NCBI GenBank assembly: GCA_024711295.1
Contig: JANJTB010000031.1
Location: forward strand, 76,097 to 140,096
Direction of reading: 5' to 3'
Length of the DNA: 64,000 nucleotides
From: a bacterium
GTDB taxonomy: Bacteria; Bacteroidota; Ignavibacteria; Kapaibacteriales; UBA2268
How positions within the stretch are numbered: position 1 is the first letter of the stretch; the number at the start of each line of letters is the position of its first letter. This document shows positions 33,871-44,668 of this stretch, piece by piece. The notes below the pieces were generated by a model. The model ran no database searches and was not told where the DNA came from. It saw nothing but the letters and a program-made list of their open reading frames with translations. A program made the position numbers and the translations under genes.

Positions 33871-35403
33871 ATGAAAAAAATATATAAAATATCAAAATGG
33901 TTGCACAAATGGACTAGCATAACAATTAGTGTAATTCTAATTTGGATGTCTTTATCCGGCATACTACTGAATCATCCTGAGCTCATCGAAAACATTTCTG
34001 TTCCTCAATGGATGTTACCAAATGAATATGATTTGGTTAATTGGAACCGAAGTTCAATAATTCAAGCTGAAAGTTCACAGTTTAATAATAAAAATATATA
34101 CTTCTGTGGAAACGAAGGTGTATTTGCTTCGCTTGATGGTGGCTACACTTTTACTAATCTTAGTTTGAATGGTTATCCAAATTCAACATACCTTAAACGA
34201 ACAAAGTCAATAGCTTTGGTGGAAAGTTCAGATAATCCTTACCTTTACGCTGGTACCTACGATGGTCTTTATGTTTTGAACAACACAAGCTCCTGGAAAA
34301 AATTAAATCTTCCTGAAAATGATTCAAAAATTGTTAAACTAGTTAAATTTGGTGATTCTTTACTTGTAGCTTCTGACTCACATATTTATGTTACTGATAT
34401 TCATGGCCAAAGCTTTGCTAAGTTGCCTTTAGAAAGAATTGACAATAACCCTAAAATGACAATGATTGAGTTCTTTTTTCAACTTCATTCCGGTGAATTA
34501 TGGGGACTTCCCGGCAAAATTTTGTTTGATATTGGAGCTATAATACTTATTTTTCTTTCATTAAGTGGATTGTATATTTGGTTATCACCAAAGTACAGAC
34601 ATTTCAAACACAGAAAAAATTTAAAAGTTGGAGCTAGCCATATTGGATGGTTTTACAGAAATCATTTGAAAATTGGTATTTGGAGCTTTGTGATTCTTTT
34701 AGTATTCGCAGTTACTGGTTTATTTATGAGGCCACCATTTATTGCTGCCTTGTTGGGAAGTGATATAGCTTATAAATATTTGCCTATACCCAAACCTACA
34801 AATTACTGGCAGCATAGGATAAGGAATGTTGCTTTTGACCAATCAACGAATAAAATCATAATAGATACAAGAGATGGTTATTGGGTATCTGATAGTGGTT
34901 TGTATGGTAAATTCAGCAACGAAATACCTCCTGTACCCATTTTTGCTATGGGAGCTACTGTTTTGAACAATGATAAAGATGGTAAATTATTGATTGGATC
35001 TTTTGCGGGGTTATTCAGGGTAGAATCATCAGGATATTATGCTGAGAATGTTATCGACAAAGACCAACCTATGGTTAGCTCAGTACGACCGGGAGCAAGC
35101 TTAATTACAGGATATTTCACAGATTCGGATGGTGAAGAATTTATTACTACACACTTCAATGGACTACAAAATGTAAACAATCCGTATTATAAAACAAATA
35201 AATATAAAATGCCAGATTTTCTCTTAGATAATTACTCAATGTCGTTGTGGAACTACCTTTTTGAAATTCACAATGGCAGAATATTTCAAGCTCTGATTGG
35301 CGACTATTACATTTTATTTGTACCCTTACTGGCTTTAATTTTTATAATAGTAATCGTTACAGGAGTCTTTGACTGGATTTATTTGAAGCTTATTAGACAC
35401 TAA
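33871..35403 (+). CDS. PepSY-associated TM helix protein (iron-regulated membrane protein type)
   Basis: LHKW, SGILLNH, LHSG, SGLYIW, TGLFMRPP and IHNGR conserved-His TM motifs; periplasmic propeller segment. Confidence 0.85.
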   Translation: MKKIYKISKWLHKWTSITISVILIWMSLSGILLNHPELIENISVPQWMLPNEYDLVNWNRSSIIQAESSQFNNKNIYFCGNEGVFASLDGGYTFTNLSLNGYPNSTYLKRTKSIALVESSDNPYLYAGTYDGLYVLNNTSSWKKLNLPENDSKIVKLVKFGDSLLVASDSHIYVTDIHGQSFAKLPLERIDNNPKMTMIEFFFQLHSGELWGLPGKILFDIGAIILIFLSLSGLYIWLSPKYRHFKHRKNLKVGASHIGWFYRNHLKIGIWSFVILLVFAVTGLFMRPPFIAALLGSDIAYKYLPIPKPTNYWQHRIRNVAFDQSTNKIIIDTRDGYWVSDSGLYGKFSNEIPPVPIFAMGATVLNNDKDGKLLIGSFAGLFRVESSGYYAENVIDKDQPMVSSVRPGASLITGYFTDSDGEEFITTHFNGLQNVNNPYYKTNKYKMPDFLLDNYSMSLWNYLFEIHNGRIFQALIGDYYILFVPLLALIFIIVIVTGVFDWIYLKLIRH

Positions 35404-35781: not shown

Positions 35782-36987
35782 ATGACTAAGACATTATTAT
35801 TCATATTTCTTGTCTTCAATATTGAAGTAGTCGGGCAGAATCAGAGAATTATTTCTTATAATTTATTTGACAGAACAGTAGATACCCTAGACCTGGTTGA
35901 TTTTGATTCGACTATTGTTAGCGAAATGACCGAATATTATATTGGAAATTTTAATAATGATATTAATCTTTTAAGCGAAAAAGCTCCAGTTGACAATGTT
36001 TTTCCTGGTAGCAATTTTACACGAAAAAGACAAGCTTCTTTAGACTTTGATATAAATAATTACCCTATTAGAACGACTGTTAAATTATTCAAACTTGAAA
36101 ATGATTCAATAAAGAGTAAATGTTCGGGAAGTTTAATTAGCCGAAAGCATGTATTGACTGCGTGTCATTGTGTTGCAAAAATTGATAAAGATTCATTATT
36201 ATATGATTCACTATTTATTTGTCCTGCTTTAGACAATGGAAGAACTAATAACAATTTTGAATGTAGTTGGGTAAAAAAAATATTTATTTTTGAAAATTGG
36301 AATATCTCTAATTCTGACTTTTCAGTTTTAGAATTAGAAAAACCTATTGGAGATGATACAGGATGGATAAGTATTGGATTTGAATCTGATAATGCATCAT
36401 TGTTGGATGGGATATTCTATAAGTTTTCATATCCTGCTACAACTATTCTCACATTAGATTCTAATTCATATAATGGAGATACTCTTTATTATGGCTACGG
36501 TATCGCTGATGTTGTAATGAATAATAGTTTTGGAGTAAAATATACCAATGGTATACCTGGAGAAAGTGGTAGTTCTTTGATAAAAATTAAGAATTATAAA
36601 ACCTATACTAGTTATGGAGTTCTTTCTTGGTCTAACAATTTAAATCATAGCAGATTGACAAATTGGAAATATTATGCACTAAAATCAATTATAAGTAATG
36701 ACCTTGCTGAGTTAAACGATAATATCATAGACATACCAGAAATTTCAATCTTTCCTATTCCTACATCAGATTATCTTAATGTAATTTATTTAGCTGAATA
36801 TAAATTTAACAAACTCATACTTTTTGACTTAAATGGGAGAAAAGTCCTAGAAAAAACAAACCTAACAAATGAAATTCAATTAAATTTATCATTTCTACAA
36901 AGTGGAACATACATTATGATTATTTATTCTGATAAAAGGCATTTTGTAAATAAAATAGTTAAAACAACTGCTAATAACGATTATTAA
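35782..36987 (+). CDS. Trypsin-fold (V8/glutamyl endopeptidase-like) serine protease with T9SS CTD
   Basis: CSGSLI..KHVLTACHC (His), SDFSVLEL (Asp), GESGS (Ser); C-terminal IFPIP...LQSGTY. Confidence 0.85.
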   Translation: MTKTLLFIFLVFNIEVVGQNQRIISYNLFDRTVDTLDLVDFDSTIVSEMTEYYIGNFNNDINLLSEKAPVDNVFPGSNFTRKRQASLDFDINNYPIRTTVKLFKLENDSIKSKCSGSLISRKHVLTACHCVAKIDKDSLLYDSLFICPALDNGRTNNNFECSWVKKIFIFENWNISNSDFSVLELEKPIGDDTGWISIGFESDNASLLDGIFYKFSYPATTILTLDSNSYNGDTLYYGYGIADVVMNNSFGVKYTNGIPGESGSSLIKIKNYKTYTSYGVLSWSNNLNHSRLTNWKYYALKSIISNDLAELNDNIIDIPEISIFPIPTSDYLNVIYLAEYKFNKLILFDLNGRKVLEKTNLTNEIQLNLSFLQSGTYIMIIYSDKRHFVNKIVKTTANNDY

Positions 36988-37773: not shown

Positions 37774-37964
37774 CAAAGGTAAAGTTATCATAATTATCCA
37801 TCAAAAATATCAGATTATTTGTTTTCAAAATTGTGTTTGAATAGTAATTTATAGGTTCTTAATAATACCATCAGGTTAAGAACATTAATCTGCATTATTC
37901 TGTTTGTAATTTTCAAGATGTAATTTTGAAGAAACTCAGTTTTTTGATTTTTTGCTAAGTTAAT

Positions 37965-37995
37965 AAAAAAAAGGCTGCCATTTTTGGTGACAGCC
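37965..37995 (-). terminator. Intrinsic terminator of the cytochrome operon
   Basis: Minus strand reads GGCTGTCA-ccaaaaa-TGGCAGCC followed by T8. Confidence 0.8.
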
Positions 37996-38024
37996 CATAA
38001 GAAAAATCAAATTTCAGAAAATGT

Positions 38025-38378
38025 TTATTTAGTTTCTGCTTTCAATGACATTAACCATTCTAACATGATTTTAAGGTCTTCATCGCTACCTTTGAAAGGA
38101 ACTGGATGTTTTTTACCATTTAATACTTCGTCTTTTTTCATATACTTAGTAAAGAATTCCAAGTCTTTGTCAGCAGTAAGCGTAGATAAATCAGGTACTT
38201 TATCTGATTTTTTCTTAGCTTCGATGCTGGCAGCAGTTACACTATGGCAAGCAGCACATTTAGCGTCTTCAAAAATAGTCTTACCGTCTTTGCCTTCAGC
38301 AAAAGAGAATTGAACAAATACTGTAGCTAAAAAGCCCATCAAAGCTAAAATAGCAACTGTTGATTTGAATGTTTTCAT
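38025..38378 (-). CDS. Periplasmic monoheme cytochrome c
   Basis: Sec signal (SFA|E), GKTIF..KCAACH, PDL, KKHP; AAGGAG RBS. Confidence 0.9.
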   Translation of the reverse strand: MKTFKSTVAILALMGFLATVFVQFSFAEGKDGKTIFEDAKCAACHSVTAASIEAKKKSDKVPDLSTLTADKDLEFFTKYMKKDEVLNGKKHPVPFKGSDEDLKIMLEWLMSLKAETK

Positions 38379-38414
38379 ATTTAAAATCTCCTTAAAAAAA
38401 AATGTTTTATAAAT

Positions 38415-38897
38415 TTAACTAGAAATAGTCAGTATTTTTTTTCCAGCATCATATTCTGTTTTATATAAAGTCATGTCGGTCGCTGTCGAAAATCCTTTGT
38501 TATCAACTGACTTGCCGTCCACAAAAGAAAAAGTAGCTCCGTGACACAGACAAGTCATTAAACCATCAGACGTATCAGGTAGCGAAACGTTACAATTCTG
38601 ATGTCTGCACAATGCATCCATAACAGTAAAGGTGCCGTCAGCATTATGTTTGATTATTACAGGATCACCCCCATTCACCTTGTCAAATCTTAATACTTCG
38701 TGATTTCCGGGAGTCTGCAATTTTGGGTATTGAGTTAAATCAACATCAAATGAATCACCTGGTTTTGGTTTTGGTGGCAATTCATCTTGCTCGCAAGAAT
38801 TAATTACACTCGAAAAAGCACCTGCAAACAACCCAAAACCAGCAACTTTACCTGTAGCTTTAAGGAATTCTCTGCGTTTATTATATTTATTAGTCAT
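38415..38897 (-). CDS. Rieske [2Fe-2S] protein, Tat-exported lipoprotein
   Basis: KRREFLK twin-arginine motif, lipobox INSC, box I CRHQNC, box II CLCHGATF. Start taken at 38897 (alternative 38903). Confidence 0.9.
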   Translation of the reverse strand: MTNKYNKRREFLKATGKVAGFGLFAGAFSSVINSCEQDELPPKPKPGDSFDVDLTQYPKLQTPGNHEVLRFDKVNGGDPVIIKHNADGTFTVMDALCRHQNCNVSLPDTSDGLMTCLCHGATFSFVDGKSVDNKGFSTATDMTLYKTEYDAGKKILTISS

Positions 38898-38910
38898 AAT
38901 CATCACCCTA

Positions 38911-40137
38911 TTAATAAAATACATGTACTTGGAAAGCCCATTGAGCTGCATATCCTTCAAGATGAGTTTTATCATTGATTCGATATTCAGGCAGAAAAGC
39001 TATGTAAGGCAAAATATATGCCTTAGCACCAAATACATAATGGTTTGTTGTAAAATCACGGTTATCGGCGATATATTTGGTATTACCAGTTTCGAGACGT
39101 GCGTATGCAATTAATGGCTCAAATACCTGATAATTTAGTTCTACAGTAAAGTTATTTGCTTCCAATAAGGTTTGTTTAACTGTACGCATATACTCAGTCA
39201 TCAAAGCAAGTTTATCAACTAATCCTATATTAAAAAACACGTTACCTATATAGTAGTGTTCATTACCGAAATAAATGCCATTGTCAGTCTTTAATGGTGA
39301 ATTAAAGAATAATGTACCACCTGCGAAAACATTTATACCAGGAGCGAGTTCTGGAGGAAATAATACTACTCTAAACACGCTTGACATGTGGTTACCATTA
39401 ACAGGTGCTCCTGCACCCGAAAGTCCAATAGGAATTGATGTTTTTGATAAATTTTCAGAGCTGAACATTCCGAAACTGACGCCAAGCCATGATAATGCTT
39501 CGTAGTCAATCTGGAATCCTAACTCAGCATAATCATCAGGAACTACGGGAATACCTCTCTGACCTGAAGCAATTTGTCTGTTAAGCATGGTGTGGTCTTC
39601 GTATTTTGTGCCTATCGTCGGTTGGAAATACCCTACTCTTATTATAGGTAAATCTTCACCTGGTTTAATAATAGCACTTGCTGCACCCGGTTGCTGACCA
39701 GGGTACCTCATAATTGAGTGAATATCGTAACCAAAATTGTAAAGACCTTCGATTGTAAGCCACTCAGTAGGTTCGTAAGCTAAATAATTAGACCATTGCA
39801 TTACCATGTGCTTTCTTTCTGAAACACCTGATTGTGAGCCCCATCGAGCTGTTTGATAACGAAAGTCAAAACCATAAGTAAATTTATCGTCAAGAAATTG
39901 GTTAGTTTCCTGTGTTAAGTCAAAAAGACCTCTAAGACCAATAGACTCAGGATCAATCAATGCACTCTGATTTCTTGACATCCAACCTGGATTATTCCTG
40001 ATACCACCACCTTGAGTGTTAATATGGCAGCCGGTACATTTAGTACCGTAAGATTGAATTAACGAATATTGCGGTCTTGATTGAACATCCAATACCAGCA
40101 GTACCGTTAGAATTATTATCAGAAAATATTTTTTCAT
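38911..40137 (-). CDS. Cyc2-like fused monoheme cytochrome c / outer-membrane beta-barrel
   Basis: Signal peptide, then PQYS...CTGCH...GGGIRN at the mature N-terminus; amphipathic beta-strands; C-terminal beta-signal FQVHVFY. Confidence 0.75.
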   Translation of the reverse strand: MKKYFLIIILTVLLVLDVQSRPQYSLIQSYGTKCTGCHINTQGGGIRNNPGWMSRNQSALIDPESIGLRGLFDLTQETNQFLDDKFTYGFDFRYQTARWGSQSGVSERKHMVMQWSNYLAYEPTEWLTIEGLYNFGYDIHSIMRYPGQQPGAASAIIKPGEDLPIIRVGYFQPTIGTKYEDHTMLNRQIASGQRGIPVVPDDYAELGFQIDYEALSWLGVSFGMFSSENLSKTSIPIGLSGAGAPVNGNHMSSVFRVVLFPPELAPGINVFAGGTLFFNSPLKTDNGIYFGNEHYYIGNVFFNIGLVDKLALMTEYMRTVKQTLLEANNFTVELNYQVFEPLIAYARLETGNTKYIADNRDFTTNHYVFGAKAYILPYIAFLPEYRINDKTHLEGYAAQWAFQVHVFY

Positions 40138-40179
40138 ATTTATCTCTTGTTATTTTCTAAATATTAAACGAAAATTTTG

Positions 40180-40234
40180 AAAAAAAGTAACACGGATGAA
40201 AGAGAGAAGCCTTTATAAAACTCCTCTCTTCATC
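40180..40234 (-). terminator. Imperfect hairpin plus T7 after the multiheme gene (partial terminator or stabiliser)
   Basis: GATGAAAGAGAGAAG...CTCCTCTCTTCATC (40195-40234) with an A-run at 40180-40186. Confidence 0.5.
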
Positions 40235-40246
40235 ATGTATCTTTCT

Positions 40247-41314
40247 TTATTGCAATGCATTAATAGCATTTTTGATTACAGCTTTGATGTACTTAGGATT
40301 GTGTATACCCCAGCTTTGGTCAGCTGCAGCCCAACGATAGTTGTACAAAGCAGCAGCATGTAATGTGGGGTATGAGCCTGGTACAGCTGCATCATGTTCC
40401 CAATGACCATGACTGCTTGTTGTGTCAATCATTTTCTTGGTAACAAGAATTTCTCTTAATTGGGTTAAGAGATTTCTTGTTTCTGTTTGTGTACCATAAA
40501 AGTCAAAGTTTGTAACATTAGCATCAGTATGACAACCTTTACAAACAGATATATTATCAACTAAAGTAGTACCATTATCATATTTCATTTTCATTGTATG
40601 ACCACCAGCCTGAGCGCCATAAGCTTTGCCCATGTGACAATCAACACAAGAATTTTGCAATACGTTCATGTGAACAACAGTTTTATTGTATGGTTCGGGT
40701 CCGGGTATTTCGAAAGCACCATTACCAACAAATGCATTGGCTGCTGAACTGTAGTGAGGACCAAAATGTGATGAACCAACTCTATAAGTTGAGTCTGTTT
40801 TGGTAATGTCAATCATTGGTGATAAAGCCCTGGTTTGGTGACACATAGCACAAACGCTTCCTTTACCAAAATTGTGAGTTGTATTTGACATACGGAATTT
40901 TACATCACCGGTATAAGTAAGTTCCCAATCTGTCTGATCGCTTTTTCTATGAACATGGTGACAGGTACGACAATTTTGACCTGTTGGATTCATAACTTCT
41001 GCTTTTGTGTTAAATTCACCGGAAGAAGCGACTTCAAGGAAACCGTCATTGGTGTGGCATGGCGCACATGTAGCAGCTGAACGCTCAAAAGAAGTACCCT
41101 TACCATGTTGTGAGTTTTCCCATTGCAATTGTTTTGCAAATAACAGATTAGTTGAGTTATGACAAGTCGCGCATTGCTCTTGGCCATCTTTACCATCAGT
41201 ACCGGCTAATCCGTCTTTTCCTGCAGGACCTTCGCAAGATGTTATAAACAATGTTACACTTGCTAATGTTGCTACCAGCAACATCGAAAAAATCTTTGAC
41301 AAAAAGTTATTCAT
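40247..41314 (-). CDS. Hexaheme c-type cytochrome lipoprotein
   Basis: Lipobox ITSC, G-X-X linker, six CXXCH motifs (CATCH, CAPCH, CRTCH, CAMCH, CVDCH, CKGCH), C-terminal DQSWGIHNPKY; GGAG RBS. Confidence 0.92.
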   Translation of the reverse strand: MNNFLSKIFSMLLVATLASVTLFITSCEGPAGKDGLAGTDGKDGQEQCATCHNSTNLLFAKQLQWENSQHGKGTSFERSAATCAPCHTNDGFLEVASSGEFNTKAEVMNPTGQNCRTCHHVHRKSDQTDWELTYTGDVKFRMSNTTHNFGKGSVCAMCHQTRALSPMIDITKTDSTYRVGSSHFGPHYSSAANAFVGNGAFEIPGPEPYNKTVVHMNVLQNSCVDCHMGKAYGAQAGGHTMKMKYDNGTTLVDNISVCKGCHTDANVTNFDFYGTQTETRNLLTQLREILVTKKMIDTTSSHGHWEHDAAVPGSYPTLHAAALYNYRWAAADQSWGIHNPKYIKAVIKNAINALQ

Positions 41315-41402
41315 AATAACTCCAAATAAATGATTAATACAATTGTTTTTAATTACTATTAAAATTAAAACTTTGTAAATTTACTCAATACTTTTATTAA
41401 AT

Positions 41403-41410
41403 CAAAATTA
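41403..41410 (-). promoter_or_regulatory. Candidate -7 promoter element for the cytochrome operon
   Basis: TAATTTTG on the minus strand; a second TACATTTG at 41632-41639. Confidence 0.4.
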
Positions 41411-41728
41411 ATTTTTGTTTAATATTTAGGATATTCTATATATTGTTTTATCTTCATCAATAAATGTAGTTGAAAGCGTTTTTATTATAACTTAATCGAA
41501 TCAATATATACTCTATTTATTTAATATTCAGTCACTTAGTAGCATTTATTTATATTATTAATATATACTGTTTATTAGTCCCATTTCTGAATTAATTATT
41601 TTTCTACATATTACAACATATTACATATCAACAAATGTACACTCTTTACTAATTAAATTTGTCAATAAAAATCATCATAAAATTTTAGTTGCTTCTAATA
41701 TATTAAATAGCTTATTAAAATTAATGTT

Positions 41729-42776: not shown

Positions 42777-43556
42777 ATGAAACAACCCTTAAGTGTTTGC
42801 TATATATCCTATAATGAAAGCGATAGAATTGCAGTTTCAATTAATTCGGTAATTGACTTCGCCACTCAAATAGTAGTTATTGACTCATACTCAAGCGATT
42901 CTACCAAAGAAATTGCAGAAAATTTAGGAGCTGAAGTTTTCTTATCGGAATGGAAAGGTTTTGTTGAGCAAAAGAATTTTGCTATCAACAAAGCAAATCA
43001 GGATTGGATTCTGTTGCTCGATTGTGACGAAGTAGTAAGTGATGAATTAAAGCAAAGTATTATAGATGCTATAATAAATGACAAAATTGGATTTTATAGT
43101 ATTAATAGGAAAACTCATTATTTGGGAAAACTTATGAAATATTCATGGCAGCCGGACAGGGTTGTCAGATTATTGCATAAATCACTTAATCCCAAATTTA
43201 CAGGTGAATTGGTACATGAAAAAATTGATATGAAAGATTATAAATCTAGCACGTTATCCGGTAACCTGATTCATTATTCTTACAGAAATATCAGGGAGCA
43301 TTTTGAGAAAACCACTAAATACTCTGAATTGTCTGCTTTAAGTTACCAAAAAATAGGAAAAAAATCAAAATTAGTCAACCTAATAATTAATCCTTTATTT
43401 GCATTTATTAACATGTACATCTTAAAATTAGGAATATTGGACGGATGGCGAGGAATAATCGCTGCTTTCAGCAGTATGACAGGTACATTTTTGAAATATG
43501 CAATTTTGAGGGAACTAAATCAAACAACCAGTGCACACTTGCCAAAATCAAAATGA
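42777..43556 (+). CDS. Glycosyltransferase family 2 (WaaE/KdtX-like)
   Basis: DSYSSDST, QKNFA, LDCDE, VHE, HYSY and LDGWRG motifs. Confidence 0.9.
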   Translation: MKQPLSVCYISYNESDRIAVSINSVIDFATQIVVIDSYSSDSTKEIAENLGAEVFLSEWKGFVEQKNFAINKANQDWILLLDCDEVVSDELKQSIIDAIINDKIGFYSINRKTHYLGKLMKYSWQPDRVVRLLHKSLNPKFTGELVHEKIDMKDYKSSTLSGNLIHYSYRNIREHFEKTTKYSELSALSYQKIGKKSKLVNLIINPLFAFINMYILKLGILDGWRGIIAAFSSMTGTFLKYAILRELNQTTSAHLPKSK

Positions 43557-44668
43557 CATTCATTACTGAATAATGGTAATTCAAGTGACCTCGCAGTTAC
43601 TTCCAAAAGTAATTGTTCCAAAAGTTTTGAACTATGTTTGTTAATAGTGTTACTACTAAATCTATGCCTTACATAGCTGTTAAAATCTAATTTAGAATAG
43701 TCCTGAGTATATAATGTAAGTCTTGAAATACCATTTTCATCCTTTAGAAGCATCTGGTTTGCTACCCAGCTATTAACTAAGGGTTGCGGGTCTTCCTTTA
43801 GAAGATGAAACTTCTCAAATCGTTTTTGAAATAAATTCGGTAAATTGTCATTAAATATTTTAGTTCTGTTTTGTAATCTTTTTTTTACAATATCAAGAAA
43901 AAGAATCTCTCTTTTGCACAAAAAATCTCTCAACTCAGACTCATCCTTGATACCAAGCTTGTTAGCAATCTTATTGTTTTTCATTGTAAAGTAAACTCTA
44001 GAAGCATCATTAATTAGCTTTTGTGAAGGGGAAACACGCGACAGACAGCATCCAAGTTCTCTATCACGATAGTTCTTATGATAATTTATTTTAAGATCTG
44101 ATGCGGGATAAATACTCTTTACTGAAACGATGCTTTTTTCGGATCCGTTTGTAAGAAAAGAATTACTTACGATGCTTCTTTCCTTCAGATTATTTAATAA
44201 TTCCATCCATATATCGACAGTTTCGTCAAAGCACACTTTATAAGCAAGAACAAAACCAGTTAAAGAGTCAATTGCAAATGCAATGTACATTTCATTACAG
44301 TCACTTCTATTCCAGGAGCAATGGAATTTCTTGCCTGAAAGGTAAATTTGCCTCGGTGTGTGATTATTGACAGACAAATCAACAAACTCATGCCAGTCTG
44401 GTGCTCTTTTCAGGTAGTCTCTTATGATAGTATTTATTCTTGTTGGAGTAGAATGATACTGTTTAGATAATTCACGAATTGTTTTACCATTTAAGTAGTC
44501 ATGAGCCATTTTTGGCAAATTCTTAATGTTATGATAATTCGTTTTGCTTGACCAAGTTTTACCACATGTAAAACATCGGTATCTCTGAACTCCCAAAGAA
44601 GTTTGTCCATGACGAATAATATCTGTGCTGCGACAATAAACGCAAGACTTTACCATAATGAAACTCAA
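43520..44668 (-). CDS. IS256/Mutator-type transposase-derived protein with Zn ribbon and HTH; catalytic residues apparently lost
   Basis: CVYC...QRYRCFTC, HTH (KTIRELSKQY), RNase-H-like core aligning to IS256 (ETVDIWMELLNNLKER...TNG...IYP). Alternative ATG start at 44656. Confidence 0.65.
   Translation of the reverse strand: MSFIMVKSCVYCRSTDIIRHGQTSLGVQRYRCFTCGKTWSSKTNYHNIKNLPKMAHDYLNGKTIRELSKQYHSTPTRINTIIRDYLKRAPDWHEFVDLSVNNHTPRQIYLSGKKFHCSWNRSDCNEMYIAFAIDSLTGFVLAYKVCFDETVDIWMELLNNLKERSIVSNSFLTNGSEKSIVSVKSIYPASDLKINYHKNYRDRELGCCLSRVSPSQKLINDASRVYFTMKNNKIANKLGIKDESELRDFLCKREILFLDIVKKRLQNRTKIFNDNLPNLFQKRFEKFHLLKEDPQPLVNSWVANQMLLKDENGISRLTLYTQDYSKLDFNSYVRHRFSSNTINKHSSKLLEQLLLEVTARSLELPLFSNECHFDFGKCALVV

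Follow-up and report, generated by a model that had tools for sequence, protein, structure and literature searches.

A fused cytochrome-porin encoded with a hexaheme lipoprotein, a Rieske lipoprotein and a small cytochrome c: a conserved candidate outer-membrane electron wire from the Kapaibacteriales

Fused cytochrome-porins serve as marker genes for microbial iron oxidation, and porin-cytochrome complexes as markers for metal reduction and electroactivity. We analysed a 64,000-nucleotide (nt) stretch of bacterial DNA (contig JANJTB010000031.1 of assembly GCA_024711295.1, positions 76,097 to 140,096, from the class Ignavibacteria, order Kapaibacteriales; the window hereafter). It encodes a fused cytochrome-porin, here called the barrel, in a module of four genes whose other products are a hexaheme lipoprotein, a Rieske [2Fe-2S] lipoprotein and a small cytochrome c. 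We consider it reasonably probable that these four genes specify the outer half of an envelope-spanning electron path.

The fused cytochrome-porins characterised in the studies consulted here, Cyc2 and Cyt572, are Fe(II) oxidases only. Keffer et al. (2021) describe Cyc2 by a signal peptide, one CXXCH heme motif, a 16-strand porin resembling OprO and OprP, which they name as structural templates, and a length of at least 365 residues. To these features they add the sequence AXPXFAR[Q/K][T/Y] 5 residues before the CXXCH, given as unique to the family, and PXL 4 residues after it. According to the published model the substrate has to enter the pore of Cyc2, which has been produced in E. coli alongside cytochrome c maturation genes and whose structure is still called unsolved in a 2026 review. 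The reports at hand list OmbB-like and MtrB-like clusters alone for Ignavibacteria. On the quinone side, the CbcL/MtoC/MtrH group is defined in its description by many c-hemes joined to a HydC/FdnI-type b cytochrome; these proteins have been proposed to oxidise quinol or reduce quinone and are reported from iron reducers and iron oxidisers alike.

The four genes and their products

Four close-set open reading frames (ORFs) are found on the minus strand within 38025-41314. Read along that strand, the features of the module are the following.

41315-41728, minus strand: AT-rich intergenic region, presumed promoter region of the operon (GC content 0.17 over 414 bp)
40247-41314, minus strand: hexaheme c-type cytochrome lipoprotein, 355 residues (ORF, Pfam, conservation, profile matches)
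38911-40137, minus strand: fused cytochrome-porin, 408 residues (ORF, conservation, AlphaFold2 model, Foldseek)
38415-38897, minus strand: Rieske [2Fe-2S] lipoprotein with a twin-arginine translocation (Tat) signal (Pfam, conserved ligands, solved relatives)
38025-38378, minus strand: monoheme c551-like cytochrome c, 117 residues (Pfam, conservation, alignment to solved c-551 chains)
37972-37996, minus strand: intrinsic-terminator-like hairpin followed by a T run, 29 nt past the last stop codon

The barrel begins with a signal-peptide-like N-terminus, as judged by eye, carries its CXXCH at residues 34-38 (40024-40038) and ends in Phe-Tyr, in keeping with an aromatic pair at the terminus of the family's proteins. 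Its heme motif is invariant in 30 of 30 aligned sequences, as are Met113, His182 and His405, and 179 of the 180 barrel-family proteins of at least 365 residues have exactly one CXXCH, located inside the first 120 residues. An AlphaFold2 model with a predicted local distance difference test score (pLDDT) of 78.5 and a predicted template modelling (TM) score of 0.77 places 16 long strands across residues 86-407, and supersedes a crude count of 14-16 amphipathic segments. When this model was compared with the PDB using Foldseek, 191 matches were obtained at E <=1e-3. The top ones listed are 16-strand outer-membrane porins, and the highest query-normalised TM scores among the matches listed belong to OprP (2o4v_A, 0.57) and OprO (4rjx, 0.56; 4rjw, 0.55). 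The original prediction, made from the DNA alone, had named a barrel fold of the 408-residue protein in advance as a point on which it could fail; model and matches both indicate a beta-barrel.

By sequence the family stands apart. Neither a Pfam nor an NCBIfam family matches the barrel in library scans, and its profile returns only a chance match (E 0.28) among solved structures. A search in 5.8 billion proteins yielded 85 clusters, none with a Pfam domain; those bearing a source name are annotated as hypothetical, and the named ones come from metagenome-assembled genomes (MAGs) of Kapabacteria, Ignavibacteria and Bacteroidota. Among 1.84 billion representatives the barrel profile finds 385 at E <=1e-3, 191 at 1e-10 and 129 at 1e-30, and we put the family size at no less than 385 representative clusters (50% identity). 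Distant members are present in Myxococcota MAGs, and a profile search started from distant members gave 30 matches, two of them with a precomputed porin Pfam (PF13505, PF13609) and none with the Cyc2 motif.

We compared the barrel with the published description of Cyc2. The single CXXCH close to the N-terminus behind a signal peptide, the OprO/OprP-like 16-strand porin seen in the model and by Foldseek, and the length of 408 residues all agree with it. Both signature motifs are missing from the 180 proteins, as P.FAR[QK][TY] and its shorter form FAR[QK][TY] each occur in 0/180 and PXL likewise in 0/180, a Gly-rich stretch being found in its place. Because of these missing motifs, the barrel is a fused cytochrome-porin of Cyc2-like architecture and not Cyc2 by the published definition. 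A partial likeness is seen in the sequence (A/S)-R-P-Q-Y-S of the window's barrel and A-L-P-R-F-A-L of distant members, which suggests, but does not prove, a remote kinship with Cyc2.

In the hexaheme protein, a lipobox Cys (Cys27) is followed by a collagen-like Gly-X-Y run at residues 29-44 (~41183-41230) and then by six CXXCH motifs. The six motifs, the lipobox Cys and six further His residues are kept in 44 of 44 aligned homologues, and the invariance of these extra His makes bis-His ligation of all six hemes likely. It is matched by the Pfam families PF22113 (7e-13), PF14522 (3.3e-10) and, over residues 207-352, PF02335 (3.2e-7). The single sequence has zero matches among solved structures; the family profile finds OcwA (6i5b_A, 5.3e-9), NrfA (8bcx_A, 1.2e-8) and, more weakly, other NrfA chains, and these matches cover the C-terminal helices together with the final heme pair. 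Gly29, Gly32, Gly35 and Gly41 of the Gly-X-Y run are invariant in 34 sequences, the length of the run varies, and it could form a tether or a trimerisation stalk; porins of the OprP/OprO type are trimeric. The run is far longer at a relative's locus (L050:1449-2657) that holds three tandem hexaheme paralogues, and a lone paralogue, 36% identical, is encoded elsewhere in the window's own genome (C11:110754-111824).

The long ORF of the Rieske gene (38415-38975, 186 residues) overlaps the barrel gene, and for this reason we place its likely start at the ATG at 38897 or 38903, just ahead of a K-R-R-E-F Tat motif (RREF at 38865-38876) and a lipobox. The Rieske domain (PF00355, 4.8e-9) contains the cluster boxes C-x-H-x-x-C at 38592-38609 and C-x-C-H at 38541-38552. 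The C-x-H...C-x-x-H ligands of the 2Fe-2S cluster are Cys96, His98, Cys115 and His118 in the numbering of the 38415-38894 translation. Every one of the 41 homologues retains the RRxF Tat motif, the lipobox Cys and all four ligands; both disulfide Cys are present in the window's protein, but the pair occurs in only 17 of the 41. The best solved relatives are PetC3 (5cxm_A, 1.2e-9), reported as a Rieske protein tied to the plasma membrane via a lipidated Cys, and the Rieske domain of Chlorobaculum tepidum (8hn2_A, 1.8e-8), followed by the arsenite oxidase subunit AioB (8r3a_B, 1e-6) and b6f subunits. The window's genome, rated 100% complete, encodes no PF00033 bc-type cytochrome b and two Rieske genes in all, one besides the window's. 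The window's Rieske protein is thus not part of a bc complex.

The small cytochrome c (PF00034, 4.3e-8) has its CXXCH at 38244-38258, kept in 46/46 homologues. There is no conserved Met in the family; His91 (38106-38108) is invariant and aligns with a His of chain 1fi3_A at the position where wild-type c-551 chains such as 1cch_A have Met. The alignment makes His/His ligation of this heme likely. A paralogue of 49% identity is found near a contig end of the same genome (C30:112960-113310), and the closest relative (locus L001) has two tandem copies within its cluster. With ORFs, Pfam and conservation in agreement, the four products are those originally proposed, namely a lipoprotein with six CXXCH, a barrel with one, a Tat-signal Rieske lipoprotein and a monoheme cytochrome. 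Their motifs add up to the predicted total of eight heme-c sites and one 2Fe-2S cluster.

Several of these matches would also fit a module in which the barrel is a channel for a small soluble redox compound of sulfur, nitrogen, arsenic or iodine, and the hemes and the Rieske protein act on that compound as a periplasmic chain of oxidoreductases. In its C-terminal half the hexaheme protein resembles NrfA-type nitrite reductases, Tat-signal Rieske subunits serve periplasmic enzymes such as arsenite oxidase, and OprP/OprO-like porins are anion channels according to the titles of their PDB entries. We nevertheless regard this arrangement as unlikely. No catalytic subunit (molybdopterin, copper or an NrfA-type active-site heme motif) occurs in or beside the module in the loci read, nor does any large non-heme gene lie inside it. 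The neighbours of the Rieske gene, here and in relatives, are the barrel and the cytochrome c, where an arsenite oxidase would have AioA. Each of the six standard CXXCH motifs has a matching invariant His, so that no open catalytic heme site is evident, and a plain channel would have no need of the barrel's invariant heme.

Conservation, partner genes and distribution

A scan of one genome per species yielded 57 loci, all from species other than the window's. We compared their gene order by tblastn with the window's proteins, and counted a locus as informative when it has sufficient flanking DNA. The hexaheme gene is directly upstream of the barrel in 46/54 informative loci, the Rieske gene directly downstream in 39/53, and the cytochrome c is present in 42/49. 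All four genes are found together in 30 of 48 loci, which makes the module syntenic across Kapabacteria and Ignavibacteria, another point that had been fixed beforehand as decisive.

The position after the barrel is exchangeable. In 9/53 loci it is occupied by a small lipoprotein of ~120-145 residues, six of the nine with a CXXCH, and at locus L015 by a divergent Tat-type protein missed by tblastn; when either carrier is counted, the complete module is present in 37/48 loci. On a rough FastTree phylogeny of the barrels, with support values left aside, the swap arises in at least three places. Since either a 2Fe-2S protein or a small lipoprotein, in some loci with a heme motif, is accepted there, the position fits that of an electron carrier. 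The Rieske protein, originally proposed as a member of the wire, is encoded next to the barrel in most loci but is replaceable. The most distant barrel homologues (31-32% identical; L051:4515-4979 and L052:4298-4732) represent a simpler two-gene form, in which a monoheme class-I cytochrome c gene immediately upstream is the sole partner and genes for a hexaheme or a Rieske protein are lacking.

The genes retain their order and orientation even though barrels of different species are only 40-50% identical, and the window's flanking genes are never found beside the module in the relatives' loci. The intergenic gaps are short (~109, 7-13 and 36 nt from hexaheme to barrel to Rieske to cytochrome c), and a single terminator follows the last gene. 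Together these features make it very improbable that four unrelated exported redox proteins are neighbours by chance, an explanation in favour of which there is only that the proteins lack an experimental link.

In relatives the module extends further. A cytochrome with 12-13 CXXCH motifs, mostly 13, and a C-terminal anchor comes next after the cytochrome c gene in 33/44 informative loci, and a PF01292 cytochrome b (1.8e-25), often fused to a NapC/NirT-like hexaheme part, then follows in 30/41. This six-gene form is found in 25/40 informative loci and on all major branches of the barrel tree, and is thus probably the older state. The window's own genome keeps the 13-heme/cytochrome b pair on another contig (C8:123657-125869), its proteins being 81% and 71% identical to those of the L001 pair. 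The original prediction saw no cytochrome b partner, which is true of the window but neither of its relatives nor of its own genome. As the pair is linked in relatives and present on contig C8, the four genes probably belong to a larger system reaching the quinone pool, with the module as the outer part of a path from quinone to the exterior. The genome encodes 13 ORFs with at least three CXXCH in total and holds a second multiheme set (C7:194344-200892) of a 19-heme protein, a 13-heme protein, a PF01292-like cytochrome b and a 6-heme protein.

Upstream of the hexaheme gene, the 414 bp are AT-rich as first described, with a sliding-window GC content of 0.19-0.23. Sigma-70-like matches in this region are no commoner than in shuffled sequences, and a promoter was not placed. 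The hairpin at 37996-37972 has 9 pairs, 5 of them G-C, with a T run after it. It was originally called a strong single terminator: hairpin and T run do follow the last gene, but a scan finds 2 sites of this kind against 1.8 expected, and the hairpin therefore carries weight by its position only. A second, weaker hairpin of terminator type at 39005-39025, inside the 3' part of the barrel gene, is probably due to chance.

The genes flanking the module in the window are unrelated housekeeping and envelope genes. Approximately 2.6 kb downstream, on the other strand, a 510-residue PepSY-associated transmembrane protein (PF03929, 1.9e-24) is encoded at 33871-35403. A trypsin-like protease at 35782-36987 carries a type IX secretion C-terminal sorting domain (PF18962, 1.1e-10), which agrees with a Bacteroidota-type cell envelope. 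A 382-residue ORF at 43520-44668, with an N-terminal InsA-type zinc ribbon (PF03811, 1.1e-6), may be a mobile-element remnant near the module.

In a sample of 401 genomes from the phylum, the barrel profile has matches in 38 at E <=1e-10. Of these, 17, including the window's, reach 1e-79 or better, all but one in the window's order; sampled genomes outside the window's class gave no match. The locus is represented in twenty public sequencing runs, which come from 7 studies covering sediment, bioreactor, soil and activated sludge. Among them, two metatranscriptome assemblies contain 0.92 and 0.88 of the words sampled from 37900-41500, which, as carried-over DNA is possible, is weak evidence that the locus is transcribed.

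Direction of electron flow and membrane placement

In the path that we favour, the heme-bearing porin would move electrons across the outer membrane, or meet a small redox-active solute in its pore, as Cyc2 has been proposed to do. On one face of that membrane the path would be lengthened by the hexaheme lipoprotein; on the periplasmic side the electron shuttles would be the Rieske lipoprotein and the small cytochrome c. The 13-heme/cytochrome b pair, which this genome encodes on contig C8, would join the path to the menaquinone pool.

Several points weigh against this assignment. A single heme cannot bridge a membrane alone, and the heme region of the barrel (residues 16-54) has a pLDDT <50, so that the model does not fix where the heme sits relative to the pore. 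We infer the contacts between the four proteins. In this genome the 13-heme/cytochrome b pair is unlinked to the module, and the upstream region of the operon shares only chance 10-11-mers in AT-rich DNA with those of the genome's other cytochrome loci. The module is accessory and patchy, with a barrel in 0/6 other genomes of the window's family, and the habitats of the runs single out no particular substrate. Rieske centres are usually mid- to high-potential, and this, like the three heme-copper oxidases of the COX1 family in the genome, fits inward flow equally well.

If the module is indeed a conduit, we lean slightly towards outward flow, in which the cell would respire an acceptor such as Fe(III), Mn(IV), humics or an electrode, either extracellular or in chelated form, with inward flow from Fe(II) as the main alternative direction. 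Hints in favour of outward flow are the six invariant extra His of the hexaheme protein, the His that replaces the Met ligand in the cytochrome c, a hexaheme profile closest to the surface reductase OcwA, the quinol-side module and a genome, rated complete as noted above, in which no RuBisCO large subunit was found. Electrode-associated and Fe(III)-reducing Ignavibacteria have been reported.

The inward direction takes its most definite form as Fe(II) oxidation of the Cyc2 type. Fe2+ would enter the pore and give up its electron to the barrel heme, electrons would then travel via the Rieske protein and the cytochrome c to a heme-copper oxidase, and the 13-heme/cytochrome b pair would be a side branch for reverse flow to menaquinone. 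The sole fused cytochrome-porins described as characterised, Cyc2 and Cyt572, oxidise Fe(II), and the barrel shares their fold, length, single N-terminal heme and OprO/OprP-like architecture. In distant members the residues A-L-P-R-F-A ahead of the heme motif are like the first six positions of the Cyc2 motif. An oxidase would be at hand among the three of the genome, the nearest relatives of the Rieske protein are bc-type or PetC3-type, and modules of the CbcL/MtoC type are known from iron oxidisers too, according to their description. Surveys with FeGenie flag Ignavibacteriales genomes for iron-oxidation genes, which may or may not include members of the barrel family. Against this, the Cyc2 signature motifs are each absent from all 180 proteins, the Cyc2 model needs no multiheme partner, and the small cytochrome differs from the usual high-potential donors of oxidases in its lack of a conserved Met ligand. 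The genome is without RuBisCO, and no link to iron-rich habitats is seen among the runs holding the locus. We hold Fe(II) oxidation of this type to be possible, if doubtful.

All four proteins carry export signals. Lauber et al. (2016) report that C-X-K-(D/E)2, or the same sequence with Q for K, sends lipoproteins of Bacteroidetes to the cell surface. After its lipobox Cys the window's Rieske protein has E-Q-D-E, and its homologues have E-K-D-E, E-Q-D-E or E-R-D-E; the signal is present in its strict form in 20/41 and in a loose form in 29/41. The small lipoproteins that replace the Rieske protein bear similar residues after their Cys, and 0/44 hexaheme homologues have the signal. Taken at face value, these residues would put the Rieske protein outside and the hexaheme protein inside, although the rule may not hold in this lineage. 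By analogy with PetC3, the acidic residues after the Rieske Cys could instead be a signal for retention at the inner membrane. The original carrier order (multiheme, barrel, Rieske, cytochrome c) is not supported; the sorting motifs even allow the opposite placement of Rieske and hexaheme. Because E-Q-D-E matches the surface signal, which the hexaheme family lacks, the Rieske protein might even be a terminal redox site at the cell surface, wired to a periplasmic hexaheme protein through the heme-bearing porin; we give this only a small chance. To our knowledge a surface-exposed iron-sulfur protein in an extracellular electron path has no precedent, and such a protein is what this placement, if true, would provide.

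Comparison with known systems

We found no literature report of a fused cytochrome-porin together with a Rieske protein, nor of this cluster in Kapabacteria or Ignavibacteria, and the barrel belongs to no Pfam or NCBIfam family. The original prediction that the combination is unfamiliar from characterised systems thus stands, and we regard the module as a conserved, so far undescribed variant of outer-membrane electron wires. Its barrel family is common in one Kapabacteria/Ignavibacteria-type order from sediments, groundwater and bioreactors. If the module is an electron conduit, these abundant 'flanking' heterotrophs would contribute to redox cycling of iron, manganese or humics or at electrodes, and the marker sets now in use may overlook or misname their route. 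The module, in which a monoheme porin is accompanied by a multiheme lipoprotein and a Rieske protein, also bears on how a 16-strand single-heme barrel moves electrons across a membrane.

In its logic the module resembles MtrCAB, MtoAB and the Geobacter Pcc (OmbB-like) conduits, which likewise combine an outer-membrane barrel with multiheme lipoprotein partners and a quinol-side module; the Pfam family of MtrC/MtrF domains II/IV matches the hexaheme protein at 7e-13. The porins of those systems are described as heme-free, with the 26 strands of MtrB enclosing a decaheme protein, whereas the barrel here has 16 strands and its own heme. Unlike MtrAB and Pcc, the module encodes no periplasmic decaheme or octaheme protein, the hexaheme lipoprotein being its only multiheme gene. 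A large heme-free porin around a periplasmic multiheme cytochrome, which characterises MtrAB and Pcc, is thus not what these four genes encode.

Cyc2 and Cyt572 of Mariprofundus, Acidithiobacillus and Leptospirillum are closer in architecture, with a signal peptide, a single N-terminal CXXCH, ~400 residues and a 16-strand OprP/OprO-like barrel. Compared by motifs and architecture, the barrel differs from them in its lack of AXPXFAR[Q/K][T/Y] and PXL, and in its gene partners, which are a hexaheme lipoprotein and a Rieske protein and, in relatives, also a 13-heme/cytochrome b pair. The hexaheme protein shares the C-terminal heme pair and helices, as matched by its profile, with OcwA, the surface nonaheme reductase of Thermincola (PDB 6I5B), and with the NrfA family; it has six hemes in place of nine or five and is a lipoprotein with a collagen-like tether.

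The Rieske protein is most like PetC3 of cyanobacteria (5CXM), a small Rieske domain outside the bc complex that is described as facing the periplasm from an N-terminal lipid-anchor Cys, the lipidation being predicted in our case. With PetC3 and the C. tepidum domain (8HN2), its best solved relatives, the window's protein has the ligand and disulfide pattern C-x-H-x-x-C...C-x-C-H in common. It differs from both in gene context, in the disulfide pair that only a minority of its homologues retain, and in a genome without PF00033 cytochrome b. Finally, the partner genes in relatives and on contig C8 can be likened by composition to CbcL/MtoC/MtrH, as they too join many c-hemes to a PF01292 HydC/FdnI-like b cytochrome. 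Here, unlike in that group, the two parts are separate proteins: one has 13 hemes and is anchored C-terminally, and the other is the cytochrome b, often with a hexaheme tail of its own.

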